Shown here: positions 867 through 60,380 of the stretch, one piece after another
Layout of the letters: the number at the start of each line of letters is the position of its first letter
How positions within the stretch are numbered: the first letter of the stretch is position 1
IMG/VR virus record: IMGVR_UViG_3300005856_000023
Coordinates: 32,001-96,000 of that record
Direction: 5' to 3' (one strand)
Length of the DNA: 64,000 bases
DNA from: a virus
Made by a program: the position numbers and the translations under genes
Notes under the pieces: model-generated
The model's input: the letters and a program-made list of their open reading frames with translations, nothing else
Database searches by the model: none
What the model was told of the DNA's origin: nothing

Positions 867-2201
867 TCAGAATAGTTTGTATGGATCTCTATCAGCTTTA
901 ATGTTTATTATACTTTCGTATTTAATCCAAAGTGAATTCTTGGGAATAAAGACTATATCATTTCTATCAAACACAAAATCAGATATAAATATCATAACAT
1001 CATTATCATTCATTTCATTCTTTAAATGATTTAATACTTTTTTGGGACTTGTTCCGCCTCTTCCACGAACTTCAATATTTTCAAAATCTTTTTTGCTTCT
1101 TAATATCACTGGACCATAAAAGTCTACATCAAAGTAGTATACTTTTATTCTGCTCATCTTGATTAATTTTGAGAATTTACCAAACACATCCTCGAGAAAT
1201 TCTGTTGGAATTGACCCAGATGTATCTATTACTGCATAAAGGTATCTGGGATAACCTTTGTACATAAATTTTGTTCCCAATAGATCAGGATTTAGTTTAT
1301 TGATCTTCATAGGGGTTCTTCTCATATCATAAATTTTTTTACCATATAAATCATAATCTGTAGCAAATTTTTCAAGATATTTTTTCCAGTCGAATTGTGA
1401 ATGTTCTTTTGCTTTGACCAATTCTACAAAATTTCCTGGGTTAGTTCCTACATCTTTAATGCTTTCCAATACTCTATTAATCAAAACGAGTCTCATATTA
1501 TCTGTTATATCCGGAGCATCTTGTATCAATTCACCATCTATCATATTGTTAAAATCAAGTGTCATATAATTATAATGTTGTATATTATTTTCTTGTTTAA
1601 CGGAACATGTATTGCAATTACTTTCGCTATTTATAGACGCTCTTTTATCCTCTTTTTGTTGCATTCTTTTGTATATTTCATATGCTAATTGTTCTATTGT
1701 CATTGCTAAAGCATCTTCTATTTTAATATCAAATAGTTCTTCAATGTCATTTAGGAATATATCTTTCTTCAGAAAATCTCCCAAATCTGAAGATTTGCCT
1801 AGTTTAAACATTTTTTTGATATCTTCAATTTTTTCACTTTTGGTAGCATGAATTTTTGTAGTGTTAAATTTATCAATCTTATATGCTAACTGATATATGA
1901 TCTCATTAATAAATGCATTAGCGGCCATGTTGTAAATATCAGGTGGAATAATTTCTTTAACATTGTTATATCTCTTTATATGGTTGAAGATTATATGCAT
2001 TGCTCCATGAACTAGATATTTCAATAGTGTAGATTCATCCTTTATTGCATTTCTATTTACAATAATACAATCATCTTTTACTTTTATGGGAACACCAGAT
2101 AATGATGCTTCTGCAATCTTCATGAATTGTAGCATATGTCTGAGTTCAATCGGAATCTGATTCATTAAATAAATCTTTCTTACTGCGTTTCTGATATCCA
2201 T
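867..2201 (-). CDS. DUF2201-type metallopeptidase-like + vWA domain protein (MoxR partner)
   Basis: N-terminal HGAMHIIFNH and N-x-A-x-N-x-x-IN segment; C-terminal MIDAS IDTSGS, GRGGT, ISD. Confidence 0.85.
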   Translation of the reverse strand: MDIRNAVRKIYLMNQIPIELRHMLQFMKIAEASLSGVPIKVKDDCIIVNRNAIKDESTLLKYLVHGAMHIIFNHIKRYNNVKEIIPPDIYNMAANAFINEIIYQLAYKIDKFNTTKIHATKSEKIEDIKKMFKLGKSSDLGDFLKKDIFLNDIEELFDIKIEDALAMTIEQLAYEIYKRMQQKEDKRASINSESNCNTCSVKQENNIQHYNYMTLDFNNMIDGELIQDAPDITDNMRLVLINRVLESIKDVGTNPGNFVELVKAKEHSQFDWKKYLEKFATDYDLYGKKIYDMRRTPMKINKLNPDLLGTKFMYKGYPRYLYAVIDTSGSIPTEFLEDVFGKFSKLIKMSRIKVYYFDVDFYGPVILRSKKDFENIEVRGRGGTSPKKVLNHLKNEMNDNDVMIFISDFVFDRNDIVFIPKNSLWIKYESIINIKADRDPYKLF

Positions 2202-2207
2202 GACATT

Positions 2208-2246
2208 AAATTTAGATTAGTTGTTTCTAGCATCCACTCTAAATTT
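2208..2246. promoter_or_regulatory. back-to-back class-1 phage promoters (CTAAATTT-N6-ATG on each strand); representative of about 31 sites
   Basis: AAATTTAG at 2208-2215 is 6 nt from CAT 2199-2201; CTAAATTT at 2239-2246 is 6 nt from ATG 2253. Confidence 0.8.
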
Positions 2247-2252
2247 ATAATC

Positions 2253-3932
2253 ATGCTTGGTTTGCTAGAGTTATTGAAACCATCAACATATGTGATTGAA
2301 GTAACATTCTTCTGTGCATTACAAAATAAAAGGATGTTAGATTTAATCAAAAACATTTTACCCTATTGGAGTATGCTTGCAACTGAGGAGCAAAAACCTC
2401 TATTATCAATGTTAACTACATTTGTGAATAAGGGTATACCAGAACATGATTTCAAACTATCACAGCCATTGGAGTTTTATTACAAACTATTTGACGTAGC
2501 AAATCTCGATGAATTGCAATCAACAATACTGGATAGGTTATACAAAATACAATTTGTTGCTAAGGTATATGAGAAGATTCAACTATTCCAACATCCAATA
2601 CATGACTATGATAAAGTTGAAATGATTGTTAGTGAATTGTTATCTGATCTTAATGAAGTTAGAGACAAAGAACTAACAGAGAAAATCTTCAATGCAAAAG
2701 ATTTATTAAATGTAACAGAAATATCTGATTTGAAATTGGTTAGTTTGATACCAGAGTTAGATTTAGTATTGGGAGGATTTTATGTTAATAATCTTTATCT
2801 GTTTGCTGCAGGATTGGGACAGGGTAAATCATTTACATTACTTAACATGGCAGTAGGATTTTCAGTTTTCCTAAAAGCATTTGAAAACTACTATAAAGAT
2901 TGGTATGGTAAAAAACCAGTTGTTTTATACATATCACTGGAAAATACTAGCGTTCAGATCAGGAACAGATTATACACATTACTAAATGATTGTACATTAA
3001 CAATACCAAAAGAAAAAAATACTCCTTTGAAACAATTATTCCAAGCTGTGGATAACTTCTATATCATATCTTTATCAGATGAGATAGTGGATTATGTTTA
3101 CATAGAGAATATTGTGTTGTCGATGCAATCAAAAAATATGCATCCAGTTGTCATTGTGTTAGATTATATGGATGAGTTATATGCTCCTGCTAACATAAGT
3201 GAACATAGACATAAGTTAGGTTATAATGCTAGAATGTTAAGGAAGATAGCTATGAATCACAATCTACTAATTGTATCTGCTACACAGATAAACAGAAAAG
3301 GTATTGAAGAAGGTAATATATCCATTACACATTTATCAGAATCAATAGAACATGGTAAAGTAACAGATGTATTAGTCGGTTTAGTTCCAATAACAATAAA
3401 CAAAGGTTATATTATTACAAATCAACCTTTAACCAAAGATATTATTAAAAGCAATCTAGACAACAAAGCAGAAGCAATTGGAATGATAAATAGCATGTAT
3501 CTCAAAGTATTAAAGAATAGACCAAATCTATTAACAGGCTTTGGATATGCAATTAGTAATCAAAGTTTAACAGGATTTAGATCTCTCATATATGGATTGA
3601 ATTATGAAATCTCAATCTATCTTGTTCCGAGTTTACATTCATATTTAGGAGATGATTATATAACTACAAACTATGATGTATTGCATAGCAGCGTTACAAA
3701 TAGAATAGCACCATTCGTAAAAAATCTTGATGTTAAGGATTACAGTAAATATCAATACGGATTGGAGTTAATATCAAATCTACTTGGTATTGATATAAAA
3801 CAAATAAATGTAAACAATGAAAACATAGAAAATGACTTTGTAGTAAGTAATATCAATCAAAACATAGATGCACTTGATGTCATAGATGATTTTGAAACAT
3901 TCGAACAAAAAAGTTTAGATTTAGATATATAG
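2253..3932 (+). CDS. dnaB: DnaB-family (SF4) replicative helicase
   Basis: Walker A AAGLGQGKS, YISLEN, Walker B VLDYMD, SATQINR, VLKNR. Confidence 0.9.
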   Translation: MLGLLELLKPSTYVIEVTFFCALQNKRMLDLIKNILPYWSMLATEEQKPLLSMLTTFVNKGIPEHDFKLSQPLEFYYKLFDVANLDELQSTILDRLYKIQFVAKVYEKIQLFQHPIHDYDKVEMIVSELLSDLNEVRDKELTEKIFNAKDLLNVTEISDLKLVSLIPELDLVLGGFYVNNLYLFAAGLGQGKSFTLLNMAVGFSVFLKAFENYYKDWYGKKPVVLYISLENTSVQIRNRLYTLLNDCTLTIPKEKNTPLKQLFQAVDNFYIISLSDEIVDYVYIENIVLSMQSKNMHPVVIVLDYMDELYAPANISEHRHKLGYNARMLRKIAMNHNLLIVSATQINRKGIEEGNISITHLSESIEHGKVTDVLVGLVPITINKGYIITNQPLTKDIIKSNLDNKAEAIGMINSMYLKVLKNRPNLLTGFGYAISNQSLTGFRSLIYGLNYEISIYLVPSLHSYLGDDYITTNYDVLHSSVTNRIAPFVKNLDVKDYSKYQYGLELISNLLGIDIKQINVNNENIENDFVVSNINQNIDALDVIDDFETFEQKSLDLDI

Positions 3933-5867: not shown

Positions 5868-7190
5868 TTAGTCGATATTATTCTCAAATTGCCAAACAAG
5901 ATAGTTAACCGATCCAACCTTCTTTGATTCTGGTGTTACAATAGGGTCCAAGTATCCCAACATATCTGTTACAAGTCTTATTTTGTGACTTAATCTCTTC
6001 ATTGCAAATTTATGAGCATATGTAGCCTTTAACTGTAACATAACTTCTGATATAGGATTATGTATTTTATCCTCTACATATTCAACTTGCATTATCTTAT
6101 ACAAAATGGATAGAGATGTTGAATGCTTTCTGGGCAATTTTCGTGTTCTAATTCTCTCATACAACAAATGCATTAGTTGTCTAACCAATGGATGCAATAA
6201 GAATGTTTTGAATCTTACTGTTTTGCTTTTTAGTGAGCTATACAAACCACAATTCTTTATATAATTGTAGAAGTCATTGCTTGGAACAAATGTAAATAGA
6301 AAGTAATAGGGATCTTTAAACTCCTGTCTAACCAATGGATCAAATATAGCACTTATCTCTCCATATAATAATGTCATTATCTCAAAAGAATGTTTGCCCA
6401 TAAGTCTTTCTAATAACCTACTCCCACCATAGTCCTTGAATGATTTTGCAAATCTTCTCCTATAATTGCTTTCATATGTTACATCTACAATTAATTGTTT
6501 ATTGACTGATGTATCTGTATACACAATAGATGTTTCCGTTTCTTGTATTGTTATGTATTTAACTTTCTTTCCTTTTGTTACAGTAGTTACTTTGTTTGAT
6601 TGATTATTACCTAACTCTTGCATATCAACTTGAAAGCCAGTTTGTTGTAAAACCATATACAACAAATCTAACAAGGATAAATTACTTTCCAATAAACTTT
6701 CATCATTCTTGAGCAAATACAATATCAAAAAGTTCAATACAGGTAATGTTTTATGTTTTGATTCATATAAGATTGGTTTTGTTTCATCTAAAATATTTTT
6801 AAACACTACTTTCCTATACAGATTAGATAATTTTGCATCCATACTCTCTGTTCCAAATCTATCCAAGAACTTATCTGCGATTGAGTAAATAAATACATAT
6901 CGTTGTCCATTAACTATTATGTAGTTTCCAATAAACCTAGGAATGAATGTTTTGTAATTACAAATTGCTCCATCCTTTTTATCCTTCAAACTATATTTGA
7001 TAGTGTAAACAGATATTAATCCGTCTGTTGACATGAGATCTTCTTCCTCAATTTGTAAATCAATTAATTCAGCATCAATCAGATCACAAAACCAAATTAT
7101 GGTATTTTTAACATCTTCTGTAATATTGTTTAATACTTGTTTGCGATATGAAATGGGTTTGCTGTCTATGTTTAGGTTTATGAAATACAT
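5868..7190 (-). CDS. multisubunit RNA polymerase beta subunit, N-terminal fragment
   Basis: FIPRFIGNYIIVNGQRYV (beta IP..G.FIING.ER block); C-terminal GYLDPIVTPESKKVGSVNYL (beta CPxETPEG.N.GL block); start moved to fit CTAAATTT-N6-ATG. Confidence 0.85.
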   Translation of the reverse strand: MYFINLNIDSKPISYRKQVLNNITEDVKNTIIWFCDLIDAELIDLQIEEEDLMSTDGLISVYTIKYSLKDKKDGAICNYKTFIPRFIGNYIIVNGQRYVFIYSIADKFLDRFGTESMDAKLSNLYRKVVFKNILDETKPILYESKHKTLPVLNFLILYLLKNDESLLESNLSLLDLLYMVLQQTGFQVDMQELGNNQSNKVTTVTKGKKVKYITIQETETSIVYTDTSVNKQLIVDVTYESNYRRRFAKSFKDYGGSRLLERLMGKHSFEIMTLLYGEISAIFDPLVRQEFKDPYYFLFTFVPSNDFYNYIKNCGLYSSLKSKTVRFKTFLLHPLVRQLMHLLYERIRTRKLPRKHSTSLSILYKIMQVEYVEDKIHNPISEVMLQLKATYAHKFAMKRLSHKIRLVTDMLGYLDPIVTPESKKVGSVNYLVWQFENNID

Positions 7191-7238
7191 GATAGTAAAT
7201 TTAGTATGTGTGCTCAAAAAAAATGTTTTATTTTTTTG

Positions 7239-7862
7239 TTATAGTAATATATCATCTGAATCTGATGATACATTAACAGTCACATCGGATAGATCCAAAT
7301 CCAATTCATCTTCTATGGTTGTTTTAGCAGTTTCGGATACTTTCTTTTTAGATGGCACTTCTGTTGTATATTTATTGTATAGTTCCCAGAATCTTGTGGC
7401 ATCTCTTTCAATTCTTTTTAATGTGGCACCTTTTCTCATTAGTTCTTCAATTGCATTAATAACCCTATCAATCTCCTCTTTGACATTTTCCAATACTTCA
7501 TCATTTATCTCATTATCCATTTTTGTTCCAATTTCTCTTAGATATAATGTATGATTATCTTTTATCACTGCTATGTATGGAGATGTTTTTAATCCTGTAG
7601 CTGATGTCAATCTGTTTGAATAAATCAATGCTACTGTATATCCATTCATATCATACAATTTGGTTCCTAACAGCAAATTCTCTCTTTTCTTAATCACAAT
7701 TACATGATCTTTGGATATTGGCTCAACTATTTTGAATTTTTTATCCACTGGAAATCCGACTAAATTGCTACCTACTGTTGTACAATAATATGTTTGTTCA
7801 TCATACTTAATAGGTTTGAATATGCTTGATAATTTTTCTACAGAGATAACTCTGATCTTCAT
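7239..7862 (-). CDS. hypothetical protein with acidic C-terminal tail
   Basis: ORF; class-1 promoter at ATG 7862; ends EDELDLDLSD...SDDILL. Confidence 0.75.
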   Translation of the reverse strand: MKIRVISVEKLSSIFKPIKYDEQTYYCTTVGSNLVGFPVDKKFKIVEPISKDHVIVIKKRENLLLGTKLYDMNGYTVALIYSNRLTSATGLKTSPYIAVIKDNHTLYLREIGTKMDNEINDEVLENVKEEIDRVINAIEELMRKGATLKRIERDATRFWELYNKYTTEVPSKKKVSETAKTTIEDELDLDLSDVTVNVSSDSDDILL

Positions 7863-7892
7863 GTCTATAAATTTAGACAAGTTGTAAAAAAC

Positions 7893-9044
7893 TCAAAACC
7901 AATCGATTTCATTTGAAGTATCTTTAACTGGAGATCTACCCAAATACATAAACAAATACAAAACTAAATGCTTTGCTATGTTTGAATACGTTTGCAATGA
8001 ATACTTACTTAGTATATCCTCTCTAATCTTAGGTATTGATATTGTTACATTATATAGTTTATTTATCTGATTCATATTGGTAGCATCCAATGGAAATCCG
8101 ACTACACTTATGATTTTATTTACAATCAATTTTAATTCATCATAACTCAATTTTTGTAATTGTTGAATGTATTGTTTGAATGTTTGTTTTGATATTTTGT
8201 TTCCGAGCATCTCGATTATAGTATCAACTAAATCATCTATTGGTTCAGGTTCCATTTTGAAGTTAATTATTGCATCATGATAATACCTACTGTAATCCCG
8301 TTCAGCAATCTCATCTTTAGTAATTTTCTTCTCTTTTGCTATATGTATTAGATTGTTTTTCAATCTGTTAGCATAGTTATTAACTCTTGCCCGCAAATAA
8401 CCCGTCCATACATTATGTATTTTTTTGGGTTCTCTATCAACTAATATTAATTGAGCCTTTCTTTCTGCAATTGACTCTAATAATCCTGATATGGATGAGA
8501 AATTGCTTGGATGTAATAAGTTAGATCTGGGTAATAATCTTCTGGCTTGTTCAAGATCATGCTTGTTAACTATTACAACAGACTTAGTTACTTGAACTAT
8601 AAACATGATAGCAGAAAACATAAAATAAAGATTACGAAGTATAGCTAGCTTATCTATAACTGGAATGTTATCACAATCTACTAACGCAACAACATCAGCA
8701 TGTAAGACAATAGCCGCAAGATGCCATCTGTTCATATAGTAAATTGAATTAGATAAATTTGGGTCAAGGGTTTTATGAAGTTTGAATACTAATTCCCTTA
8801 GTTCTTTTTGAACTATGCTAGTATTCGTATGCATCTTATCAAATAGTAGAGGACGAAATTTTTCTACACTGATAACATTTAAGTTGTCAACGTATGGTCT
8901 TATTTGAGTTGTAATTCTATCGGTTGTACGATACAGAGTTAGCATATAATCTTCAAAATTTTGAAAACCAAAATAGCGCACAATATGCCCAATTAGTTCT
9001 TTTTGTTGATTATTTAACCAGTGAACATATTTACAGTTCGCCAT
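7893..9044 (-). CDS. hypothetical helical protein; candidate RNAP promoter-specificity subunit
   Basis: 383-aa ORF with class-1 promoter, two genes from the RNAP beta fragment; function is inferred from context only. Confidence 0.35.
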   Translation of the reverse strand: MANCKYVHWLNNQQKELIGHIVRYFGFQNFEDYMLTLYRTTDRITTQIRPYVDNLNVISVEKFRPLLFDKMHTNTSIVQKELRELVFKLHKTLDPNLSNSIYYMNRWHLAAIVLHADVVALVDCDNIPVIDKLAILRNLYFMFSAIMFIVQVTKSVVIVNKHDLEQARRLLPRSNLLHPSNFSSISGLLESIAERKAQLILVDREPKKIHNVWTGYLRARVNNYANRLKNNLIHIAKEKKITKDEIAERDYSRYYHDAIINFKMEPEPIDDLVDTIIEMLGNKISKQTFKQYIQQLQKLSYDELKLIVNKIISVVGFPLDATNMNQINKLYNVTISIPKIREDILSKYSLQTYSNIAKHLVLYLFMYLGRSPVKDTSNEIDWF

Positions 9045-9063
9045 AATAGCTAAATTTAGCTAC

Positions 9064-17008: not shown

Positions 17009-17028
17009 CAGAGCTAAATTTTTAAAAC

Positions 17029-17472
17029 ATGAGGAGCTTTGCCATACCTAGAAACCTATTGAACATACCTTTTAATGTTGTTTATGCAGATAAATTCATT
17101 ATTTGTAGCATGGAACCCAGTACTAATGATGAAGATAGTCTTCTGATTGCAGGATTAGATTTTACAGAAATTGCTGCTAATAATAAACGAGTAAAATTTT
17201 CCAACTTAGAAAAAGGTTTAAGATTGTATATAGGTAGTTCTTACTATGTTGTTAAGGATATCGTACATGTAAAACAAAATAATCTAGTTCCATTTTACAT
17301 TGCAAAACCATTTATGGAATTTGGAGAATTTAGAATCTTTGGTCCGTTTAGAGTTAATTTAGAAATAACAGAAAACGAAACTGAGGAATATGAAATAGCT
17401 AATCTAAAAATAAGTTTTGAAAAGAAATTTAATTTGTTAGAGGTATTAGATACTAACTTTAAGGTAAATTAG
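17029..17472 (+). CDS. hypothetical protein
   Basis: ORF with class-1 promoter. Confidence 0.7.
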   Translation: MRSFAIPRNLLNIPFNVVYADKFIICSMEPSTNDEDSLLIAGLDFTEIAANNKRVKFSNLEKGLRLYIGSSYYVVKDIVHVKQNNLVPFYIAKPFMEFGEFRIFGPFRVNLEITENETEEYEIANLKISFEKKFNLLEVLDTNFKVN

Positions 17473-17496
17473 CAAAATTGTCTAAATTTTTTTACA

Positions 17497-17733
17497 ATGA
17501 GGAAAGTGAAAGTTCCAAAGAGAGAATTTCCCAATTTAGATCAATTAATACTCGATTTCATGAATCTACCATCAATTGATAGAGTAAGAAGAATTATGCA
17601 TTGCATGTATAATGTAAATACATGTGATAAAGATACAATGAAAATTGATCCTTATTTAATACCAATGTTTAGAAAATTGAAATCTATGTATCCAACAGTT
17701 AGGGATGAAGTCTTATTAAGAGCAATTCTCTAA
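17497..17733 (+). CDS. small hypothetical protein
   Basis: 78 aa, class-1 promoter, T-run after stop. Confidence 0.7.
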   Translation: MRKVKVPKREFPNLDQLILDFMNLPSIDRVRRIMHCMYNVNTCDKDTMKIDPYLIPMFRKLKSMYPTVRDEVLLRAIL

Positions 17734-17765
17734 TTTTTTTGCTCAACGATGCTAAATTTATCAAA

Positions 17766-18371
17766 ATGAAAGAATTCTTGAGTATAGCAAAACAATTAGT
17801 AGATTTAACAAAAAATGATTCAATTGCAAATCATTTTACTGAATCTGCAGAGAGAGTATCAAAATACTGGACGGAGATCATGCAATTTGCTATTAATAGA
17901 AAAAATTTTGATTCTGATGCAGAATGTATTAAGCATCTACTAACTATCAAAACTTTTGAGGATAATTTTGAAGATGAAGATGTAAGCATGAACAAAAGCA
18001 AAAATTTGCTATTCGTTGGACCTATTAAAGTATATAGTGTATGTGCTCATCATTATGCTCCCATTATAGGTAATGTCTGGTGTGGATACAAGCCACAAAA
18101 CAAAATCATTGGCTTATCAAAATTATCACGTATTGCTAAACTATATGCAAGACAACCCATTGTACAGGAACTATATACTGATGGACTATTTGATTTGCTA
18201 AAGTATTTTACTGAATCGGACAGAATAGTAGTAATAACTTATATGAGACATTTATGTATGGAGTCTAGAGGAATAAACGATACAAACTCCATAACAACAT
18301 ACTACAAACATAATTTAGATGATGCGGAATTCCAAGCATTACTATCTACAATTAAGTTTGAGAAACCATAA
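17766..18371 (+). CDS. folE: GTP cyclohydrolase I
   Basis: SVCAHHYAP, IIGLSKLSR, QE, HLCMESRG. Confidence 0.95.
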   Translation: MKEFLSIAKQLVDLTKNDSIANHFTESAERVSKYWTEIMQFAINRKNFDSDAECIKHLLTIKTFEDNFEDEDVSMNKSKNLLFVGPIKVYSVCAHHYAPIIGNVWCGYKPQNKIIGLSKLSRIAKLYARQPIVQELYTDGLFDLLKYFTESDRIVVITYMRHLCMESRGINDTNSITTYYKHNLDDAEFQALLSTIKFEKP

Positions 18372-18401
18372 CTACCTTACAAGTAATCTAAATTTTTTGT
18401 T

Positions 18402-19460
18402 ATGAGGTTAAGTAGTTTGCTACAAATTAATATTGATCGAATGCTATTGCTAGGACCTCCAGGTATCGGTAAAACATCTATTATTAAGCAGATTGCAATA
18501 TCAGAATCTGAAAAGAGAAATAAAATATTTGTTGATCTGAATGAAAAATTTTCAGCAGATGAGATATTGAAAAATCCAGATAAATACTATGTATACTATA
18601 GGATTATTGCTCCGTATTTTAATAGTGATATCATAGAATTTCCAAAAATTGTTGATGGATATGTTAAATTATTTCCTGTAGAGGTATTTGAAGTATTACA
18701 GAAATGCGAAGGTATACTATTTGTTGATGAGATAACGAATGTTCAAATACCTCATATAAGAACATTGTTCTATTCATTACTTGATTCAAAGGAATTGGGT
18801 AGTCATATAAAATTGAGTCATTTGAAAATTGTAGCGGCTGGGAACAAAATTGAACATTCGGAAGATGCGGAAACATTACCAAAACCATTGAGAAACAGAT
18901 TAATAATTGTTAATGTAGAAGTAGATGCTAATGATTGGCTAAAGTGGTATACATCATCTAATTCATTCAATGAACATGTTGCCGCGTTTATACATGAACA
19001 TCCAGGATATTTGCTATATGATGTTGATCCAAAATATGATGATGGATACACTAATTTTGCATCACCAAGAACATGGGAACGAGTTGGATTATTGCTAAAT
19101 GAAACAAAAGATAATATTGATACAAAAATTAGGAGAGAATTGTTAATGGGATTGTTAGGACCAATTGTAGCTGATAAGTTTGACTCATTCTTAAAATATA
19201 ATGTTGACTATCATAGATTAAAGAATCACTATGAATATTGGAACTCATTACATAGATCACAGAAATTGATGGCAATATTCACGATTGCAGCTAACATCAA
19301 CAAAGAATGGATTAAATTTCTAATGTGGCTAATTGATCATGAACCGGAGATGGTTAAGATTTGTTTGGATAAGGTTAATACAAAACTAGATATGGATATA
19401 GTCAAAGATCTAACAATGCTTAATGTTCAACTATCAAAAAAGATTTCGCTATTGAGATAA
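18402..19460 (+). CDS. MoxR-like AAA+ ATPase
   Basis: GPPGIGKT, LFVDEI, VAAGN, PLRNR, FASPRTWE. Confidence 0.88.
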   Translation: MRLSSLLQINIDRMLLLGPPGIGKTSIIKQIAISESEKRNKIFVDLNEKFSADEILKNPDKYYVYYRIIAPYFNSDIIEFPKIVDGYVKLFPVEVFEVLQKCEGILFVDEITNVQIPHIRTLFYSLLDSKELGSHIKLSHLKIVAAGNKIEHSEDAETLPKPLRNRLIIVNVEVDANDWLKWYTSSNSFNEHVAAFIHEHPGYLLYDVDPKYDDGYTNFASPRTWERVGLLLNETKDNIDTKIRRELLMGLLGPIVADKFDSFLKYNVDYHRLKNHYEYWNSLHRSQKLMAIFTIAANINKEWIKFLMWLIDHEPEMVKICLDKVNTKLDMDIVKDLTMLNVQLSKKISLLR

Positions 19461-19832
19461 ATTGATCATTTTTTGCTTCCAGAACTCTATTAAATACTTC
19501 TTTTTAAATATGTGATTTCTGCTAGCATACAATTTCAGAGTATTTTTTATAATCCTCATTGTATATAATTTGAGACTAAAATATTTACCATCGGTTAGAT
19601 ACGAGATTAGCAGCCTATCTTTATAGATTTCAGAGCTCATCATTAATTCCTTTAAGCCAAGCCTGGTAAAATTTGATGCTAATTTATCACCTCCGTAAAC
19701 AGGCAATATATCCACATCGTCAATATCATAAAAGTTATCATCTTTTGCATATTTGATTTGATAGAATTTTTTTGCTTTCTCATGTTGTCCAAATAATATG
19801 TGTGCTGATACCTCCTTATGCTGATCTTGCAT
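19449..19832 (-). CDS. hypothetical protein
   Basis: 127-aa ORF with class-1 promoter. Confidence 0.65.
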   Translation of the reverse strand: MQDQHKEVSAHILFGQHEKAKKFYQIKYAKDDNFYDIDDVDILPVYGGDKLASNFTRLGLKELMMSSEIYKDRLLISYLTDGKYFSLKLYTMRIIKNTLKLYASRNHIFKKKYLIEFWKQKMINLSQ

Positions 19833-19862
19833 AACAAAAAATTTAGTATAATTGTAAAAAAA

Positions 19863-20897
19863 CTACCATCTTAATTCATTTCTCTTTGCATATGTTTGTG
19901 GTTTCTTTTGGAAGAAATCTGTTTTGGTATTGTTTATTGTCCTAAATTGATCAATCCAAGGTAATGGATTCTCTGTTATATGATATATTGGCTTGAAACC
20001 TAATTGAGTTATCCTCAAGTTAGCCAAATATTTTATATACTTCTCAATCAAATCATTGTTTATACCCAATATTTTGTTTTGCGTTACATATTGTCCCCAT
20101 CTAATTTCGTGATATGTAGCAAACTTAAAATATTCAACAATCCATTTCTCAAGTTCTTTAAATACATCCGGTTGCTCCTCTTTTAGGCTAAGTATTATAT
20201 TGCGAAACAATGTAACATGAGTTAACTCGTCTCTGTTTATGTATTTTATTTGTTGAACTGTGTTTAACATTTTGCCTTGTCTACCAAGTGTATAGAAGAA
20301 TGCAAAACCAGAATAGAAGTATAAGCTCTCAAGTACGTAGTTTGCAATAGTAGCTTTAACAAAGTTTTCAATACTTGGATTGAATCTCAAGTTATCATAA
20401 ATTTCAGCTATGACTTTTATACGTTCCTTCAATACTTCATCCTGTCTCCAGTAGTTGTATATTTCATCTGCTTTGATAGGATCTACAACACTTTCAAGTA
20501 TTAGTTGATAGGAATATGAATGTAGTGCTTCCTGAAACTCCTGTGCTGTTATAGCCATATGCAATTCTGGAGCAGTTAAATATCTTGTGAATTCTTTCAA
20601 ATTAACAACTTGAAAACTATCCAAAGCAATTAGAAAGCTTAACGCTAATTCATATGCTCGCTTCTCAGCTTCTGATAGTGATTTCTCATATTGTTTTTTG
20701 TCATCATTCATAGGTATTTCTTCAGGTATCCAAAAGTTGGTAAAGCCCATAGTCTTGTATAGGTCAAAAGCCCACTGATATTTGACGTTATTAAGTTCCA
20801 TAATGTTAGTTGTATTTCCGCCAATGATGCATCTGGCATTAATATTTCTTTCTCCAAATTCGTTAAATATTTTTGTTGGATTTAAATGTTTTTCCAT
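19863..20897 (-). CDS. nrdB: class I ribonucleotide reductase beta subunit
   Basis: NFWIPEEI, ALDSFQ, QEALHSYSY, LESLYFYSGF, RDELTH, KTDFF. Confidence 0.95.
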   Translation of the reverse strand: MEKHLNPTKIFNEFGERNINARCIIGGNTTNIMELNNVKYQWAFDLYKTMGFTNFWIPEEIPMNDDKKQYEKSLSEAEKRAYELALSFLIALDSFQVVNLKEFTRYLTAPELHMAITAQEFQEALHSYSYQLILESVVDPIKADEIYNYWRQDEVLKERIKVIAEIYDNLRFNPSIENFVKATIANYVLESLYFYSGFAFFYTLGRQGKMLNTVQQIKYINRDELTHVTLFRNIILSLKEEQPDVFKELEKWIVEYFKFATYHEIRWGQYVTQNKILGINNDLIEKYIKYLANLRITQLGFKPIYHITENPLPWIDQFRTINNTKTDFFQKKPQTYAKRNELRW

Positions 20898-20929
20898 AGT
20901 GATAAATTTAGCATAGGTGTAAAAAAATG

Positions 20930-21226
20930 TTAAAACTTCATTCTTCTTAATTTCAAAATACACTTCGGATGTACTTCATGCATGTAAAATTCAACAATTT
21001 TATTCTCTTTTTCCAATTCGCGTGGAATAAATTTTACTGGGACATAAAATAATTTTGGAGTTATTTGTAATTTAATCACATCTGAATTGTAATGTACGAG
21101 ATAGTTGGTATCATTTTTAAATACCATAATTTCAATTGATACAGATCCTGGTATCAATTCTTTCATGACAGCAGAAATTAAATCGTAATTTAGAATTCCT
21201 TCCTTGTCGTATATAAACACTTCCAT
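20930..21226 (-). CDS. hypothetical protein
   Basis: 98-aa ORF with class-1 promoter. Confidence 0.55.
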   Translation of the reverse strand: MEVFIYDKEGILNYDLISAVMKELIPGSVSIEIMVFKNDTNYLVHYNSDVIKLQITPKLFYVPVKFIPRELEKENKIVEFYMHEVHPKCILKLRRMKF

Positions 21227-21256
21227 GTTTATAAATTTAGATTGGTTGTAAAAAAA

Positions 21257-21841
21257 TTAAACTAATCTAAATAAACTGTAGCTATCATATCTTCCAATCA
21301 ATATTATATGTTCATCATCTGCATATATGTCGATTACCTCTGGATCAAAGTCAAGTATTGTGTTTAATGGAACTTCTAATTTTGTTTCTGCATCCAGATA
21401 TATTTCTGATTCAAAATCAATCGTTGAACATACTATTTTATCATTTTCAATGTTTACATTCAATCCTTTCATAACAGAAGTTAGTTCATAAACCTTGCTT
21501 AGAATACCTGTATCAATTCTATAGTTGTACACATTGTTGGTATATAGATTTATAATCTTCTTGAGCAAATCATTTTTATCTTCATTTTTCATTACAGTGA
21601 ATTTAAACTTTCCAAAATTTGTTTCAATTACTAACTCATTTGAATCATAATTTACAGCAATGTTTTTGATTGCATCTTTCTCAAGAATTTGTAGTGGAGT
21701 GTAATTAACAATTGAACAGTTGGGTAGAAAATCATTTGCTCCGACTAATACAAAATCATTGTTGTAAGCATACATAATATTATCATCAATTGTAATAAAG
21801 AATGCTCCAATTTTAGTTGCCGTCTTAATGAATTCCTTCAT
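21257..21841 (-). CDS. putative DNA sliding clamp (PCNA/gp45-like)
   Basis: Acidic 194-aa protein with two helix/strand repeats; RFC-like loader elsewhere in window. Confidence 0.45.
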   Translation of the reverse strand: MKEFIKTATKIGAFFITIDDNIMYAYNNDFVLVGANDFLPNCSIVNYTPLQILEKDAIKNIAVNYDSNELVIETNFGKFKFTVMKNEDKNDLLKKIINLYTNNVYNYRIDTGILSKVYELTSVMKGLNVNIENDKIVCSTIDFESEIYLDAETKLEVPLNTILDFDPEVIDIYADDEHIILIGRYDSYSLFRLV

Positions 21842-21872
21842 TTTAATAAATTTAGCCTGGTTGCATAAAAAA

Positions 21873-22985: not shown

Positions 22986-23007
22986 AAACAAAAATTTAGA
23001 CTGAGTG

Positions 23008-34564: not shown

Positions 34565-34587
34565 CAACATGACTAAAATTATAGATT

Positions 34588-45703: not shown

Positions 45704-46465
45704 TTATCCTATGAATTCTTTCTCTTTAAAATCCTGTAAAATATGTAATCTGGGACTGAATATCAAATTATGTTTTGCGCAGAATAATAGTGTCTCATAA
45801 CTATTGTTTAATTGTTTTTCTCTTGTTGCTCCTTCTGGCATAACAAATATGCCAATTGCTTTATTTCTTACTTTTTCTACCAATGACAATATAAATTCCT
45901 GGGTTTGTGAACTTTCATAAACAAATTTAAGGGAAAAGCTTATGTTGTTTACATTCATATTGTTTAACTGATCTACGAGTTTTGGATACGTATCTACATA
46001 TTTATGTTGATATCTCGTTTCTTTTGGTGATATGCTAAAATGAAATTTTATGTTATTACAATGAACAAAGTCATCTATTATAGGGTTTGTTCCATTTGTT
46101 TCTATTATGACAAAATCTTTTCCACTATATTCATTCCATAGTTTTGATACTTCAATTATAAATGCTTGTCTATCTTCTGTCATTAAAGGTTCTCCACCAG
46201 TAAACATAAGCAAATAATCTTTTAGCTCATAACTAACATTCTGAACAGAATCAACTATATAGTTTGCTAATATGTAGTTTATCAGTTCCTCTGGACTAAA
46301 ATCTTTACCTGGATTTGACCAATTCTCATAGCTATCACAAAATTTACATCTTAGATTACAACTAGCAAATCTGATTAACAATACAGGTAACCCTATATAT
46401 GCTCCTTCTCCTTGCAATGTCTTGAAAATTTGATAAATACGCTGTTTATTAACTTTGGTTGTCAT
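45704..46465 (-). CDS. queE: 7-carboxy-7-deazaguanine synthase (radical SAM)
   Basis: TLQGEG, CNLRCKFCD, TGGEP, IETNG, ISPK, SPRLH. Confidence 0.93.
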   Translation of the reverse strand: MTTKVNKQRIYQIFKTLQGEGAYIGLPVLLIRFASCNLRCKFCDSYENWSNPGKDFSPEELINYILANYIVDSVQNVSYELKDYLLMFTGGEPLMTEDRQAFIIEVSKLWNEYSGKDFVIIETNGTNPIIDDFVHCNNIKFHFSISPKETRYQHKYVDTYPKLVDQLNNMNVNNISFSLKFVYESSQTQEFILSLVEKVRNKAIGIFVMPEGATREKQLNNSYETLLFCAKHNLIFSPRLHILQDFKEKEFIG

Positions 46466-46511
46466 GCTAATAAATTTAGGTATATTGTAGCAAAAAAAAC
46501 TAATCTAAAAG

Positions 46512-47390: not shown

Positions 47391-47657
47391 ATCCAACCAC
47401 CTCCTTTAAAAGTTTTTCTTGTATACAAATTTAGATAGTTTTTTAACACATTCTTAAAGTGGATTATAAGCAAAAATTTCATGAACTACAACATATAATA
47501 AACTACATTTTACCAAAGATTTAAAGGTTCAACAACTAAAATGTAATAGTCATAGCGAAAGAAAAAGAAAAATCTATCCTTTCTGTTGCAAGGTATTACA
47601 TATTTGCAATCTACATAATCTATCAAGTAAAGTAAAGCGTTCTTCTCATCATTAGGT

Positions 47658-51077: not shown

Positions 51078-52108
51078 CACCTCCTTTAAAAGTTTTTCTT
51101 GTATACAAATTTAGACAGTTTTTTTAACACATTCTTAAAGTGGATTATAAGTAAAAATTTCATGAACTACAACATATAATAAACTACATTTTACCAAAGA
51201 TTTAAAGGTTCAACAACTAAAATGTAATAGTCATAGCGAAAGAAAAAGAAAAATCTATCCTTTCTGTTGCAAGGTATTACATATTTGCAATCTACATAAT
51301 CTATCAAGTAAAGTAAAGCGTTCTTCTCATCATTAGGTTTAGTCAATCTTCTCAAAAATACGTCTCCACCAAATCTCCCTGTCATCAACATGTTCTACCA
51401 CGACCTTGCCTCCTTGCTTGTTTTCAATTTGCTGGGCTTCGCCCCTGGTTTGTAACTCTTTCATGATTTCACCTCCTGTAATTTTTCTTTTATGAGATTT
51501 ATTACCTCCTCAGCCAACTCCTTTCTTTCTCTCCTTGGCATCCAATCCCAGTCTGGGTTCCCTTTAAATACAATGTTTAGGATTTCATCAGGTTCCAGCC
51601 TATCAATGTAATATTTCAACCAGTTTTTCCATAGGTCCCTAACCCACTCTTCCGAATCTCTTATCTCCTTCCTTGCAATCAGTTCCTTCTTCAGAAGGTC
51701 TACCCACTCCTCCACACTTAGCCCTGCCCATTTCTCCTCCTTTCCTGCTAACTCTTCAATTCTTTCATAAATTTCCCAAGCTAACTCCTTCCTTTCCTCA
51801 GCCTCTAAATTGTTCCACTCGTCCATTCCACTCAAGAATGTGTCCATAATGGAAGCCAAACTCCACCCCCAACTCCTTTCAGGAGTAGTATCTAACCAAA
51901 TCAGTAGTCCTTTTGCCCAGTTTCTTGGCTTTCTAAGATAGTCATAGTAAAGACTGTCCCTTAGAAACTCAATAAATTGATTGAGTAGGGCTTCCCTATC
52001 CATATCAACATCTCCTTCATCGGTTTGGCTTTGCTGGGATACACTCCCAGCGGGGGTTTGAACTTGCTCCTTCCTTTCCATGACTTTACCTCCTCTTAAG
52101 GTTTTCAT
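51078..52108. repeat. ~1-kb direct repeat, copy B
   Basis: Matches 47398-48420. Confidence 0.95.
51461..52081 (-). CDS. hypothetical protein (copy B), with in-frame upstream ATG at 52108
   Basis: Near-identical to 47780-48394. Confidence 0.8.
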   Translation of the reverse strand: MERKEQVQTPAGSVSQQSQTDEGDVDMDREALLNQFIEFLRDSLYYDYLRKPRNWAKGLLIWLDTTPERSWGWSLASIMDTFLSGMDEWNNLEAEERKELAWEIYERIEELAGKEEKWAGLSVEEWVDLLKKELIARKEIRDSEEWVRDLWKNWLKYYIDRLEPDEILNIVFKGNPDWDWMPRRERKELAEEVINLIKEKLQEVKS

Positions 52109-52173
52109 AATTTTAATTTTAGACAAGTTTAGACGTAGTCAAGGTTTTTTTATGATTTTTATCATGTTTCCTT

Positions 52174-53729: not shown

Positions 53730-53813
53730 GACTTCACCTCCTCTTAAGGTTTTCATAATTTTAATTTTAGACAAGTTTTAGACTTATCATGTGTAGTATG
53801 CTTAAAGTATATT

Positions 53814-55154: not shown

Positions 55155-55965
55155 GGCTTGCTCCTAAGGTAAGTCCAAATTTCTCAAGTTTTTGTTCTAG
55201 TTTCTGTTTATCCTGTAATGCTACATCCAAGAGCATTTTAACATCTTCATAACTTACCGGTTGAGAATCAAAATCTATTTCAATAGCATAATCTATTTGA
55301 TCTTTAACTTTGGCTCTTTTGAATGCTTCTATTCTAAATCTACATGAGTTACATACTCCACATGCTAAGTTGTTAACAGGATAATAGCAAGATGTTGAAT
55401 TTTTGAAATCTGCTCCAAGATATGCTCCAATCTTTACCAATTCTGTTTTTGTGAATCTTATTGTTGGACTTATGAAGAAGATTGGTTGCTCATAGGGATA
55501 GTATGTAGTAGCAAGAAACATTTCATTCAAATTCTCAAGAAATCTATCTGTGTTATCTGGGTATGCTCCCATTTCACTAATATTGAATGCAAATGATACT
55601 ATGTTAATGTTTAATTTGCGAGCATATTGTGCTCCTATCAGTGCAAACTGTAAATTCCTGTATGGAACTAAATCTACAGGAGCCTCTCTGCCATCAGATA
55701 CATCTACATCAATATCACTATTTCCATCTGTCAATTTTGAACCAAGTATTCTATCACTAATTTTATGCGTGATTAATTTTAATCCATTTGCAGAAGCAAA
55801 TCTTTTTGTAGATTGTAATTCAGCTTCTAATGCTTTTTGTCCATAATCAATAAACAACAATATAGGTTCAATCTTGTAAATATGTTGTAATATGCTAACA
55901 TTAACAACAGAATCTAATCCTGAACTGAATAGTACAATTGCTTTTTGGTTAGTTACGTTTGTCAT
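55147..55965 (-). CDS. queC: 7-cyano-7-deazaguanine synthase
   Basis: SSGLDS, DYGQ, VPYRN, YPD, SCY..ACGVCNSC..R. Confidence 0.95.
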   Translation of the reverse strand: MTNVTNQKAIVLFSSGLDSVVNVSILQHIYKIEPILLFIDYGQKALEAELQSTKRFASANGLKLITHKISDRILGSKLTDGNSDIDVDVSDGREAPVDLVPYRNLQFALIGAQYARKLNINIVSFAFNISEMGAYPDNTDRFLENLNEMFLATTYYPYEQPIFFISPTIRFTKTELVKIGAYLGADFKNSTSCYYPVNNLACGVCNSCRFRIEAFKRAKVKDQIDYAIEIDFDSQPVSYEDVKMLLDVALQDKQKLEQKLEKFGLTLGASHV

Positions 55966-55979
55966 AATGATAAATTTAG

Positions 55980-58550: not shown

Positions 58551-58576
58551 TTAGTTTAGCTAATAAAAACAAAAAA

Positions 58577-59368
58577 TTATTTGTTAAATAAACTGCATTT
58601 GCTTTGATATTTACAAAACCTACATAGAGGGTTTTTTCTTGGTTCGTATTCTGATCTTAATACTTTATCTGTAAGCTCATTAATAGTCTCTAATACCTCC
58701 GTCTTACTTTTTTGTTCAGTATTATTCACTATCCTTACATCCATATCAGCAAATGATACATAGATAAAATATGATTTCTCTACATCAAATAGAGAGGTAT
58801 AAATACTTAGTTGCCAGTTATAATCATCGTAAATATATAGATTTGATAATGGTTTGCTAGTTGTTTTTAAATCAACAATTGCATTTGATAAAATAAGATC
58901 TGGTGTTAACTTGAGTATGAATTTATCATTTTCAAACAGATAAACACTTTCAACTTCTATTATTTTTTGATTAAAACTTAGTATGGCTTGAAATGCTTTC
59001 TTAGCTAAATATCCATACTCTATAGAGTCTTTAAATAACTTTTTATTCTCTATATTGTTTGTTTCTTCTAATATCTCAGCTATCGTATTATCAATAACTT
59101 CAAGCAGTAATTGATTTGTTCTTCCATTTAAACCAAATAGATATGATCTCAATAAGAATTCAACTGCCCTATGAATAATAATTCCATGTGCTAAAGCTAT
59201 ATTCCTGGGTAAGTCTAGTTTTTGTTCCTTCTGATCCATGATAAATAGTTTGAAATATAATGGACATCTCTTATACGTAAGCAATGAGTTTGTTCTCCAA
59301 AATACCTTGTTATTTTCCAATATGCTAAATCCATTACTTTTTCTATCCAGCAATCTAGAGATATTCAT
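58577..59368 (-). CDS. Cas4/AddB-like PD-(D/E)XK exonuclease with 4Fe-4S cysteines
   Basis: CP..G.IIH..PD..VDLKT..QLSIY..CRFCKY...C. Confidence 0.88.
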   Translation of the reverse strand: MNISRLLDRKSNGFSILENNKVFWRTNSLLTYKRCPLYFKLFIMDQKEQKLDLPRNIALAHGIIIHRAVEFLLRSYLFGLNGRTNQLLLEVIDNTIAEILEETNNIENKKLFKDSIEYGYLAKKAFQAILSFNQKIIEVESVYLFENDKFILKLTPDLILSNAIVDLKTTSKPLSNLYIYDDYNWQLSIYTSLFDVEKSYFIYVSFADMDVRIVNNTEQKSKTEVLETINELTDKVLRSEYEPRKNPLCRFCKYQSKCSLFNK

Positions 59369-59441
59369 AATCTCAAATTTAGCTGTGATGTCTAAACATT
59401 CATAATCAAACAATTTATACAACTAAACTAAAATTATAGTT

Positions 59442-60380
59442 ATGGGTTTGCTTGTTGAGAAATACAGACCAGATTCACTCGAACATGTTGTACTCCCTTA
59501 TTATGTAAAGGAGAAAATAAAACAAATGATTGATAGCAAGGATATACCAAATTTGCTTTTGTATGGTCCACCAGGAACAGGTAAAACAACCATAGCCAGA
59601 ATAATAATCAAAAACATTCTAACCAATGAGAAGAATGCTCTAATATTGAATGCTTCTGATGACAGAGGCATAGATGTTATACGTAACAAAATTACTCCTT
59701 TTATATCTGTTAAACCTGCAAATGATAATTTTAGGATTGTATTCATGGAAGAAGTAGGTGCACCACAGGGTGGCTTAACAATGGCAGCACAATCAGCATT
59801 ATTGAATATAATTGAAGATAAGCATACTTATGCTAGATTTATAATGACAACAAATTTTCCTGAAAGATTATTGCCATCCTTAAGATCTAGATTTGTTCAA
59901 ATAAAAATAGAAGAAATGCAAAAAAATGATATGCTTGATAGATTGAGATATATATGCGAACAAGAACAAATACAATATGATGATCAACAATTAATGAGAA
60001 TAATAAACACTACATATCCGAATATGAGAAATGCTCTACAACTATTAGAAGGATGTATTGTGCAGAGAGCAAATGTTAAGTTAATTGATGATAATCTGTT
60101 AACAAAAGCAATAGCCGAAATTTATAGTATTAATAGAATTGAACTCAGCAAACAATTCATAGTTGCATTATGGAAAAACAGAAAGAATTTCACGAAAGAA
60201 ACAATCAAAACTTTACCGTTTGTTATTGATAAAATTGAGGATATTCCTATTGAAACTGTTATGCAATTACTAGACAAGAAGGATGAACTTGAATTGATTG
60301 AGATGATGATAGATTTAAGAAAAAAGAATAAAGATGCTAGCTTGATAGATTTGATTGCTCAGATACTTAATAGTGATTAG
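59442..60380 (+). CDS. clamp loader subunit (RFC small/gp44-like)
   Basis: VEKYRP, GPPGTGKTT, LNASDDRGIDVIR, LRSRF. Confidence 0.92.
   Translation: MGLLVEKYRPDSLEHVVLPYYVKEKIKQMIDSKDIPNLLLYGPPGTGKTTIARIIIKNILTNEKNALILNASDDRGIDVIRNKITPFISVKPANDNFRIVFMEEVGAPQGGLTMAAQSALLNIIEDKHTYARFIMTTNFPERLLPSLRSRFVQIKIEEMQKNDMLDRLRYICEQEQIQYDDQQLMRIINTTYPNMRNALQLLEGCIVQRANVKLIDDNLLTKAIAEIYSINRIELSKQFIVALWKNRKNFTKETIKTLPFVIDKIEDIPIETVMQLLDKKDELELIEMMIDLRKKNKDASLIDLIAQILNSD

Follow-up and report, generated by a model that had tools for sequence, protein, structure and literature searches.

In the bacteriophages phiKZ and AR9, a virion RNA polymerase (vRNAP) is made late, packaged and reads an early motif, and a non-virion polymerase (nvRNAP) reads late promoters (PMC5312081, PMC7598289). 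In published descriptions of these systems, the AR9 early promoter is given as AAATATATATTAT-(6N)-G+1, the start site in phiKZ and phiR1-37 is placed 6 nt after the consensus (PMC5312081), and the early motifs of vRNAPs are characterized as AT-rich, approx. 10 nt long, centred at -10 and intolerant of deviation (PMC7598289). A second point of reference is provided by leaderless genes of bacteria, i.e., the TANNNT element which in Deinococcus-Thermus (D. radiodurans) is described as read by sigma-A 6-7 bp before the open reading frame (ORF) of leaderless genes (PMC12340547), and the signal TAtaaT, which Zheng et al. report along with a prediction of 20.7-32.4% leaderless genes in two of five Aquificae genomes (PMC3160421). 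We analyzed a window of 64,000 nt (bases 32001-96000 of the single virus record IMGVR_UViG_3300005856_000023, 129,010 bp), in which an octamer, CTAAAWTT, precedes many start codons at a fixed distance, as well as the remainder of this record; positions are those of the window unless given as genome positions.

The octamer was found in 50 copies in the window, as compared to 22.55 +/- 4.46 copies in 100 dinucleotide shuffles (largest number, 37). Of these 50 copies, 31 have an ATG downstream, 26 of them at a distance of 6 nt and 5 at 7 nt; 14 of the 31 lie on the + strand and the other 17 on the - strand. A positional scan thus recovered exactly the 31 coordinates listed in an original prediction made from the sequence of the window, and scanning of the whole record extended this coupling to 58 of 89 octamers (51 at 6 nt and 7 at 7 nt), where about 3.5 would be expected by chance. 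With ATG present at 1.98% of positions, the binomial P value for the coupling is 5e-31 in the window and 1e-58 in the genome; within 0-9 nt of the octamer, the only other offsets bearing an ATG in the whole record are 0, 1 and 2, each with 2-3 copies. Chance or a dispersed repeat was rejected as the source of the octamers, as the flanks differ between copies.

The ATGs coupled to the octamer are real gene starts. They open ORFs of at least 50 codons in 55 of 58 cases (median 198.5), as compared to 15.5% of all 5116 ATGs; the three exceptions are ORFs of 14 codons (at 35852) and 15 codons (outside the window) and an ORF truncated by the end of the contig. For 38 of the 58 coupled ATGs, no in-frame ATG, GTG or TTG is found farther upstream in the open frame. 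The start of NrdB lies within 4 codons of the starts of homologues in Aquificaceae that are led by a Shine-Dalgarno (SD) sequence (71-79% identity), and the Pfam domains of QueC, the radical-SAM protein, the clamp loader and the AAA protein have their first residue between positions 5 and 18 of the protein. For 17 of the 55 genes with an octamer, our crude gene call had set the start farther upstream. The 31 genes that had been predicted become 30 genes, as the site at 35852 opens a 14-codon mini-ORF only; a small RNA or peptide may be expressed from this site.

The structure of the signal was examined in the 51 sites with a 6-nt spacer (N6). The spacer is T-rich and without an SD sequence, G being found at any one position in at most 12 of 51 sites, as had been predicted. 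The canonical -35 position carries at most 0.26 bit of information, and the earlier statement that there is no evident -35 element stands; a conserved CA approx. 21 nt before the ATG had, however, been overlooked. An A is located 7 nt before the C of the octamer in 48 of 51 N6 sites (52 of 54 gene starts) and a C 8 nt before it in 35 of 51 N6 sites (37 of 54 gene starts), and the two positions after this CA prefer A and C. The octamer itself shows 7 of 8 invariant positions and lacks a tail of degenerate variants: 45 octamers at offset 6 are exact, the 7 sites with one mismatch before long ORFs all deviate at octamer position 6 (six A and one C), and octamers with two mismatches are no commoner at this offset than at control offsets. 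Among hexamers before long ORFs, TAAATT was counted 53 times, TAAAAT 8 times and TATAAT twice; genome-wide, TAAATT and TATAAT are about equally common (362 vs. 292). The distance from TAAATT, which fits TANNNT, to the ATG is 7 nt in N6 sites and 8 nt in N7 sites. Taking the A of ATG as +1, the motif spans -14 to -7, and an archaeal TATA box was rejected on account of this position, which is not approx. -26. The sites with a 7-nt spacer (N7) suggest slippage in a T-run, and two of them (17014 and 17482) are N6 in other strains.

T-runs upstream of the octamer, which had been proposed to be part of the expression system, were found at 14 of 38 sites behind a co-oriented gene as compared to 1 of 16 divergent sites (P = 0.02). 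As the T-runs track the co-oriented upstream gene, they are probably the terminator of that gene rather than part of the promoter. Five octamers (34104, 35838, 47434 and 51114 in the window and 118765 in the genome) share a ACTTTAAGA box 16-17 nt upstream, at approx. the -35 position, which may mark a sub-class or a regulator site. A literature search on the octamer gave only unrelated papers among the matches listed.

Several observations indicate that the octamer functions in DNA. A score computed from the 16 nt upstream of the octamer was higher for coupled octamers (leave-one-out median, +4.55 bits) than for others (-6.3; P = 1.5e-10). All of the four top-scoring uncoupled octamers (34104, 47434, 51114 and 37441) lie between genes, in the same orientation as the next gene, and have an A at position N6+1. 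Three of them (34104, 47434 and 51114) are copies of a cassette composed of the octamer, GTATAC or ATATAC, an A and a leader of approx. 32 nt with AAGGAGGT. As these four octamers act away from a start codon, the constant part of the arrangement is six bases followed by an A. Moreover, 16 coupled sites belong to divergent gene pairs, in which an RNA signal could not come from an upstream transcript. These comparisons of sites support the view that the octamer acts as a promoter rather than in translation.

If the octamer instead acted in RNA, as a fixed-distance translation enhancer on longer polycistronic transcripts started elsewhere, its fixed distance to the AUG, the lack of an SD sequence and the short gaps between co-oriented genes (median approx. 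31 nt) would be accounted for, and one RNA-library contig (X17 record 19, 19871-21235) does run across the octamer at 20904-20911. An RNA element would, however, not be expected well upstream of the next start codon, as in the four octamers above (three of these starts have an SD sequence of their own), nor before divergent gene pairs, and the motif resembles a -10 box with a DNA-type element upstream of it. No AU-rich translation enhancer is known to require an exact 8-mer, and we regard an RNA signal as very improbable. Overall, it appears highly probable that the octamer is a promoter giving a leaderless mRNA with its start site on the A of ATG, and the geometry agrees with the earlier proposal of a transcription start at or next to the ATG. 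The claim of a complete SD-independent expression system, on the other hand, was too strong, as 21 of 145 genes are SD-led and four octamers are placed before a longer leader, three of these with AAGGAGGT.

Strain-level relatives were available for 47 of 57 examined sites; the strain set included contigs of one metagenome-assembled genome (MAG), which are 93.5% identical to the phage over 123.5 kb, and 19 near-identical loci (18 metagenome loci and L001 from IMG/VR). Of the 376 site-positions of the octamer, 4 are variable (three of them at the W position), as compared to none of 141 for the ATG, 19 of 282 for the spacer, 110 of 1363 (8%) for the upstream flank and 112 of 940 for third codon positions. 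The octamer was less variable than the flank (P = 3e-8, Fisher's test), with strain events that are not phylogenetically independent. As judged from these alignments, the octamer is under purifying selection among strains. The MAG (G001) is labelled Thermodesulfobacteriaceae; the presence of the phage contigs in it is probably a binning error rather than a host link.

In two more distant metagenome contigs, both with a beta' N-terminal fragment 35-37% identical to that of the phage, the TAAATT-N7/8-ATG geometry of the signal is retained. One of them (L099) shows TAAATTAT-N5-ATG in 7 of 9 copies, the ORFs behind these being 118-473 codons long, and the other (L098) shows GTAAATTA-N7-ATG; in both, the beta' gene itself carries TAAATT 7-8 nt before the ATG, with altered flanking bases. 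Among k-mers coupled to ATG in 80 IMG/VR loci with beta' identities of 26-31%, the motif was found only in the near-identical strain L001, in an analysis that did not address other motifs there.

The crude gene call on the whole record gave 145 ORFs, which were assigned to an octamer class (55 ORFs), a class with AGC 8-14 nt before the ATG (AGC class; 62 ORFs), SD-led genes (21 ORFs) and 7 unclassified ORFs. In the AGC class the trinucleotide peaks at 9-11 nt before the ATG; 5% of random ATGs have such an AGC. All but one of the 21 SD-led genes follow a co-oriented gene, as would be expected if only a first cistron can be leaderless. For 24 of the 31 octamer-class proteins in the window a domain scan was performed and 11 were named, i.e., DnaB, NrdB, a RecA-like protein, an AAA protein, a clamp loader, QueC, a QueE-like radical-SAM protein, GTP cyclohydrolase, a Cas4-like exonuclease, a DUF2201 peptidase and the N-terminal part of RNA polymerase (RNAP) beta'. 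Outside the window, the named octamer-class proteins are both pieces of a split family-B DNA polymerase and the C-terminal parts of RNAP beta and beta'. No virion protein is found among these 15 named proteins (11 in the window and 4 outside), in agreement with the predicted set of RNAP, replication and deazaguanine genes. The named members of the AGC class, on the other hand, include a gp23-like major capsid protein (MCP), the tail sheath, the large terminase (TerL), NrdA, thymidylate synthase, an SNF2 helicase, a second beta' N-terminal part and a second beta. The genome of approx. 129 kb thus contains two sets of split beta/beta' genes with opposite motif classes (sets A and B, Table 1).

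Some further observations concern these gene sets. The loci given for the two split beta/beta' sets also include 63393-64430, and the beta' of set B is taken to be joined by a split intein. The 440-aa octamer-class protein encoded at 5868-7190 has no Pfam or PHROG match, and its language-model features place it near a viral cluster in which 72% of members have RNA_pol_Rpb2_3 (score 0.95). We offer only as a lead that this protein may supply the N-terminal part of beta that set A lacks. QueC, the QueE-like radical-SAM protein and GTP cyclohydrolase all belong to the octamer class, but as Pfam searches in six frames revealed no transglycosylase of the TGT/DpdA type, deazaguanine modification of the DNA is not established.

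The opposite motif classes of the two RNAP sets correspond to the logic of phiKZ and AR9, and on this basis we take the octamer to be the early promoter of an injected, virion-delivered phage polymerase. CTAAAWTT together with the CA approx. 7 nt upstream would form the core of a phage-specific promoter, with transcription starting on the seventh base after the octamer, which in the 58 coupled copies is the A of the start codon or, in N7 sites, the base just before it. Genes of the octamer class would be made as leaderless mRNAs, which host ribosomes would translate without an SD sequence. This class would drive the early programme, i.e., replication, recombination, nucleotide and deazaguanine metabolism and polymerase set A. 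By the same phiKZ/AR9 logic, the octamer would be read by polymerase set B, which carries the AGC motif like the capsid, sheath and terminase genes and would be made late, packaged and injected. We consider this the best-supported reading and assign to it a probability of approx. 50%; the exact start site, the timing, the packaging of set B and the reading enzyme are what we infer from the arrangement. The early promoter of a virion-packaged RNAP that had originally been predicted is therefore retained, in that the opposite motif classes fit it, with packaging as its presumptive part.

A number of observations weigh against this assignment. The functional division is less clear than it may seem, as 20 of the 31 octamer-class genes in the window are without a named function (13 with no match and 7 outside the scan) and as the AGC class includes NrdA, thymidylate synthase and the SNF2 helicase; the split is thus not purely virion vs. 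non-virion, and a division into early and late is an idealization. The best solved-structure matches of both beta' fragments are bacterial beta' subunits, and the 60 best PDB matches for each fragment are all cellular (mostly bacterial beta', with plastid-type gamma and one archaeal Rpo1N), with no phage polymerase among them. A tblastn search of beta' against phage records gave 8 weak matches, and none to phiKZ or AR9 at E <= 1e-5. In view of these cellular matches, we file only the strategy, not the polymerases, with the phiKZ/AR9 clade. A sigma-like partner of the phage polymerases is conceivable; a six-frame scan found no sigma r2 or r4 domains, although a very divergent gp55 could escape such a scan. 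In AR9, 5' untranslated regions (UTRs) of 26-491 nt are described, and the account of phiKZ mentions that no leaderless transcript was found (PMC5312081, PMC8244752). TAAATT also fits TANNNT at 7-8 nt, near the 6-7 bp given for Deinococcus-Thermus (PMC12340547), so that geometry alone cannot separate a phage polymerase from a host holoenzyme.

The genome (129 kb) is also smaller than those of jumbo phages, which exceed 200 kb. Bases 981-1101 recur as the final 121 nt of the contig, and a 94-kb contig of a relative (L160, i.e., G001:C110) directly joins both ends of the record; as this contig bridges the record ends, the 129-kb genome is probably complete, despite a CheckV estimate of 50%, and does not appear to be that of a jumbo phage. 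Finally, the RNA data available (four libraries, compared over 16501-36500) consist of assembled contigs, which are unable to show starts, and no place where molecules start was reported in these contig sets. The predicted start at 20897, for example, is crossed by the contig X17 record 19 and bracketed by the ends of others, two from different studies that terminate at 20873-20875 and one that starts at 20900; with no DNA run alongside, these contigs are no evidence either way. Words sampled from 16500-26400 are present in six RNA libraries at 37-42%.

The identity of the host bears on who reads and translates these genes. As NrdA and NrdB are 82-88% and 71-79% identical, respectively, to proteins of Hydrogenobacter, Thermocrinis and other Aquificaceae and as the phage DNA was found in hot-spring runs, an Aquificaceae host is likely on the evidence of these sequences. 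The leaderless genes predicted in Aquificae (PMC3160421) suggest that such a host can probably translate leaderless mRNAs. Aquificaceae genomes have nrdB next to nrdA and with an SD leader. In the phage, nrdB (19863-20897) is located behind an octamer and nrdA (38323-40623) behind an AGC, 17 kb apart and neither with an SD sequence; this comparison indicates that the captured host NrdB has exchanged its SD leader for the octamer. Four Aquificaceae genomes show no enrichment of the exact pattern (2, 2, 4 and 5 occurrences vs. 2, 2, 3 and 0 in a reversed control), and the MAG with the phage contigs shows it 55 times vs. 2 in the control. A k-mer scan of 53 Aquificaceae loci for host start signals was dominated by the shared nrd genes, and the loci, not being independent, were unusable for this purpose. 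According to a published statement, no virus of Aquificae had been isolated as of 2020 (PMC7689252), and our literature search found no paper on a two-polymerase phage of Aquificae among the matches listed.

The principal competing explanation, which we consider unlikely but not negligible, is that a host sigma-A holoenzyme, perhaps modified by a phage protein, reads TAAATT as a -10-only promoter, as occurs at leaderless genes in Deinococcus-Thermus, Actinobacteria and some Aquificae, and that the phage polymerases take the AGC class or other tasks. Such an enzyme is suggested by the match to TANNNT, at 7-8 nt from the ATG vs. 6-7 bp in D. radiodurans (PMC12340547), and by the first T of "TA-led" genes in Aquifex aeolicus, which is given as approx. 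12 nt upstream (PMC3160421). The five octamers with a ACTTTAAGA box at approx. -35 and the bacterial-like appearance of both phage polymerases point in the same direction, as does a perfect TTGACA-N17-TATAAT which, in a high-GC insert, takes exactly the place that is filled by CTAAAATT in two paralogous 5' regions. This sequence (48429-48457) is the only perfect one in the record. Sigma-70 consensus sites with up to one mismatch, however, show no excess (12 vs. 13.55 in shuffles). A sigma-A promoter would also be at odds with the 7 of 8 invariant positions and lack of degenerate variants, with the use of TATAAT only twice as compared to 53 times for TAAATT, when the Aquificae signal is given as TAtaaT by Zheng et al. 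(PMC3160421), and with the flanking C and TT and the upstream CA, which are not sigma-A elements. Moreover, the exact pattern occurs at control level in the four Aquificaceae genomes, and the late-class set B would be left without a promoter class to read. The -10-only element that had been proposed as an alternative is thus weakened by the exact 8-mer, the near-absence of TATAAT and the flanks, and the geometry still fits it.

It is less likely again that the octamer is a middle-class promoter, read by set A or by the host core with an unrecognized phage specificity factor (a sigma like AR9 gp226 or T4 gp55), with a very early class yet to be found. The TAAAT core is common to the T4 late box TATAAATA, and many phage proteins, e.g., 13 of 24 scanned octamer-class proteins in the window, are without a family and could include such a factor; the AR9 nvRNAP is described as requiring a fifth, sigma-like subunit without sequence similarity to sigma (PMC7598289). 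However, the set A genes carry the motif themselves, so another reader would have to come first, and the three classes cover almost all of the 145 genes, leaving only 7 unclassified and no further early class visible. In addition, neither a sigma r2 nor a sigma r4 domain was found in six frames, and the motif precedes no virion gene, whereas T4 late promoters do.

Table 1. Location of octamer signals in the window and of the two RNAP gene sets
Signal	Gene or feature	Position	Strand
octamer-N6-ATG	DUF2201 metallopeptidase/VWA gene 867-2201, divergent partner of 2253	2199..2215	-
octamer-N6-ATG	DnaB-like helicase 2253-3932	2239..2255	+
octamer-N6-ATG	440-aa protein 5868-7190	7188..7204	-
octamer-N6-ATG	207-aa protein without named function 7239-7862	7860..7876	-
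octamer-N7-ATG	383-aa protein without named function 7893-9044; octamer within palindrome CTAAATTTAG	9042..9059	-
octamer-N7-ATG	147-aa protein without named function; strain variant minus one T is N6	17014..17031	+
octamer-N7-ATG	78-aa protein without named function; N6 in strain variant	17482..17499	+
octamer-N6-ATG	GTP cyclohydrolase 17766-18371	17752..17768	+
octamer-N6-ATG	AAA ATPase 18402-19460	18388..18404	+
octamer-N6-ATG	127-aa protein without named function	19830..19846	-
octamer-N6-ATG	NrdB 19863-20897, host-derived	20895..20911	-
octamer-N6-ATG	98-aa protein without named function	21224..21240	-
octamer-N6-ATG	194-aa protein without named function	21839..21855	-
octamer-N6-ATG	RecA/UvsX-like 21873-22985	22983..22999	-
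octamer-N6-ATG	200-aa protein without named function	25683..25699	+
octamer-N6-ATG	182-aa protein without named function	27378..27394	-
octamer-N6-ATG	tandem paralogue 1 of 4 (172-174 aa, each with own octamer)	28726..28742	+
octamer-N6-ATG	tandem paralogue 2	29313..29329	+
octamer-N6-ATG	tandem paralogue 3	29894..29910	+
octamer-N6-ATG	tandem paralogue 4	30480..30496	+
octamer-N6-ATG	242-aa protein without named function	31044..31060	+
CTAAAATT-N7-ATG	405-aa protein without named function	34573..34590	+
octamer-N6-ATG	14-codon ORF only, between convergent genes, ACTTTAAGA box ahead	35838..35854	+
octamer-N7-ATG	RNAP beta' N-terminal part, set A, 35954-37321	37319..37336	-
octamer-N6-ATG	188-aa protein without named function	38018..38034	-
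octamer-N6-ATG	radical-SAM QueE-like 45704-46465	46463..46479	-
CTAAAATT-N6-ATG	TTGACT 15 nt upstream; in-frame SD-led ATG 27 nt downstream; high-GC insert	52106..52122	-
CTAAAATT-N6-ATG	in-frame SD-led ATG 27 nt downstream; 5' region paralogous to 52122	53754..53770	-
octamer-N6-ATG	QueC 55147-55965, Pfam domain from residue 8	55963..55979	-
octamer-N6-ATG	Cas4-like exonuclease 58577-59368, divergent partner of 59442	59366..59382	-
CTAAAATT-N6-ATG	clamp-loader AAA+ 59442-60380	59428..59444	+
uncoupled octamer, A at N6+1	leader of approx. 32 nt with AAGGAGGT, ATG 34064, cassette copy 1	34097..34104	-
uncoupled octamer	same SD leader type, start 47396, cassette copy 2	47427..47434	-
uncoupled octamer	same SD leader type, start 51073, cassette copy 3	51107..51114	-
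uncoupled octamer, intergenic	good upstream flank, then TTTTGT-ATA, not ATG	37434..37441	-
octamer before all three	RNAP set A: Rpb1_2; Rpb2_6; Rpb1_4/5	35954-37321; genome 21644-23236; genome 107594-109231	
AGC motif	RNAP set B: Rpb1_2; Rpb2_6	genome 16788-18083; genome 104165-106909	

Among the features in Table 1, the uncoupled octamer at 37434..37441 is a candidate for either a promoter with a leader or a decayed site. The four tandem paralogues (28740-31012) each have a conserved TTAGCTTAC box upstream, and this region is hardly covered by contigs from the RNA libraries, possibly because the repeats were collapsed in assembly. A high-GC stretch at 46500-53800 on the - strand (42% GC in 48-52 kb) contains SD-led genes and repeated promoter-leader cassettes as well as duplicated 66-aa ORFs (47510-47710 and 51191-51391); ten proteins scanned from this stretch showed no Pfam family. 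Within it, three paralogous 5' regions on the - strand (48394-48421, 52081-52108 and 53729-53756) have an ATG 7 nt after a -10-type box and a second in-frame ATG with AGGAGGT 27 nt on, so a dual start, leaderless and SD-led, is possible. Protein Atlas gave nothing usable for the protein at 7239-7862.

At 33725, contigs from RNA libraries of two studies (X17 and X18) run out in sequencing adapter, and a third (X16) stops at 33734. The gene at 33021-33728 has its stop codon at this place, which may represent a transcript 3' end without a hairpin. A stretch of approx. 1.1 kb (56130-57280) has no ORF of at least 63 codons, no Rfam match and no tRNA, and contains one uncoupled octamer (56900). Rfam gave no match in the window, and no tRNA genes were found. 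In phage records, no match was found to 20 kb of the sequence (megablast) or to the capsid protein (tblastn).

Taken together, these data can be joined into a wider picture, which we put forward tentatively and hold to be somewhat less probable than the reading of the octamer by an injected phage polymerase. The 129-kb phage of Aquificaceae would be organized as approx. 120 one-gene leaderless transcription units with two private, bacterial-like polymerases outside the phiKZ/AR9 clade, and a 17-nt signal (octamer, six bases and ATG) would set the start of both transcription and translation. Injected set B would read the octamer and the resulting set A would read AGC, with no need for host sigma or SD pairing, and captured host genes would be converted by an exchange of leaders, as in the host nrdA-nrdB operon, which would have been split into the two classes.

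If the start sites are confirmed, the two-polymerase, host-independent strategy, so far a feature of jumbo phages, would reach a phage of 129 kb in a thermophilic phylum that branches deeply, and such a polymerase could be coupled genome-wide to leaderless translation, unlike in AR9 and phiKZ. The signal would then provide a compact, portable expression signal for thermophiles and a rule for the correction of start codons in this clade, and the exact 8-mer with its CA would be a clean substrate for studying promoter recognition by a multisubunit polymerase that is sigma-less or privately specified. The signal would also show how captured host genes are re-fitted, with NrdB having lost an SD leader and gained an octamer.

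T4 late promoters consist of TATAAATA at approx. -13 to -6 and depend on gp55, gp33 and gp45. The signal described here, whose box abuts the start codon, resembles them in having a single AT-rich box near -10 without a -35 element and a TAAAT core, but here replication and nucleotide genes are marked and MCP, sheath and TerL belong to the AGC class; moreover, no sigma-like gene was found and the phage has its own polymerases. Sigma-A -10-only leaderless promoters, as described for Deinococcus-Thermus and Aquificae (PMC12340547, PMC3160421), share with it a -10-like hexamer at a similar distance and the lack of both -35 and SD sequences, and the likely host phylum has such predicted genes. They differ from it in that here the 8-mer is exact, TATAAT is avoided (2 vs. 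53), C, TT and the upstream CA are conserved, and the exact pattern is not enriched in the four Aquificaceae genomes. The phage encodes a DnaB-like helicase and a family-B DNA polymerase in split form, both of which count as core genes in jumbo phages that encode RNAPs (PMC7598289). It shares with phiKZ and AR9 two sets of split beta/beta' genes and, with their vRNAP promoters as described, a short, AT-rich and near-invariant motif followed by six free bases and a presumed +1 (PMC5312081). As in these phages, the motif is located before one polymerase set and replication genes and not before virion genes or the other, presumably packaged set, and there is no host-type promoter set. Unlike in phiKZ and AR9, the best PDB matches of both beta' fragments are all cellular, the presumed +1 coincides with the start codon, leaving no 5' UTR, and nearly every gene owns a copy of the promoter, rather than one copy serving each operon.

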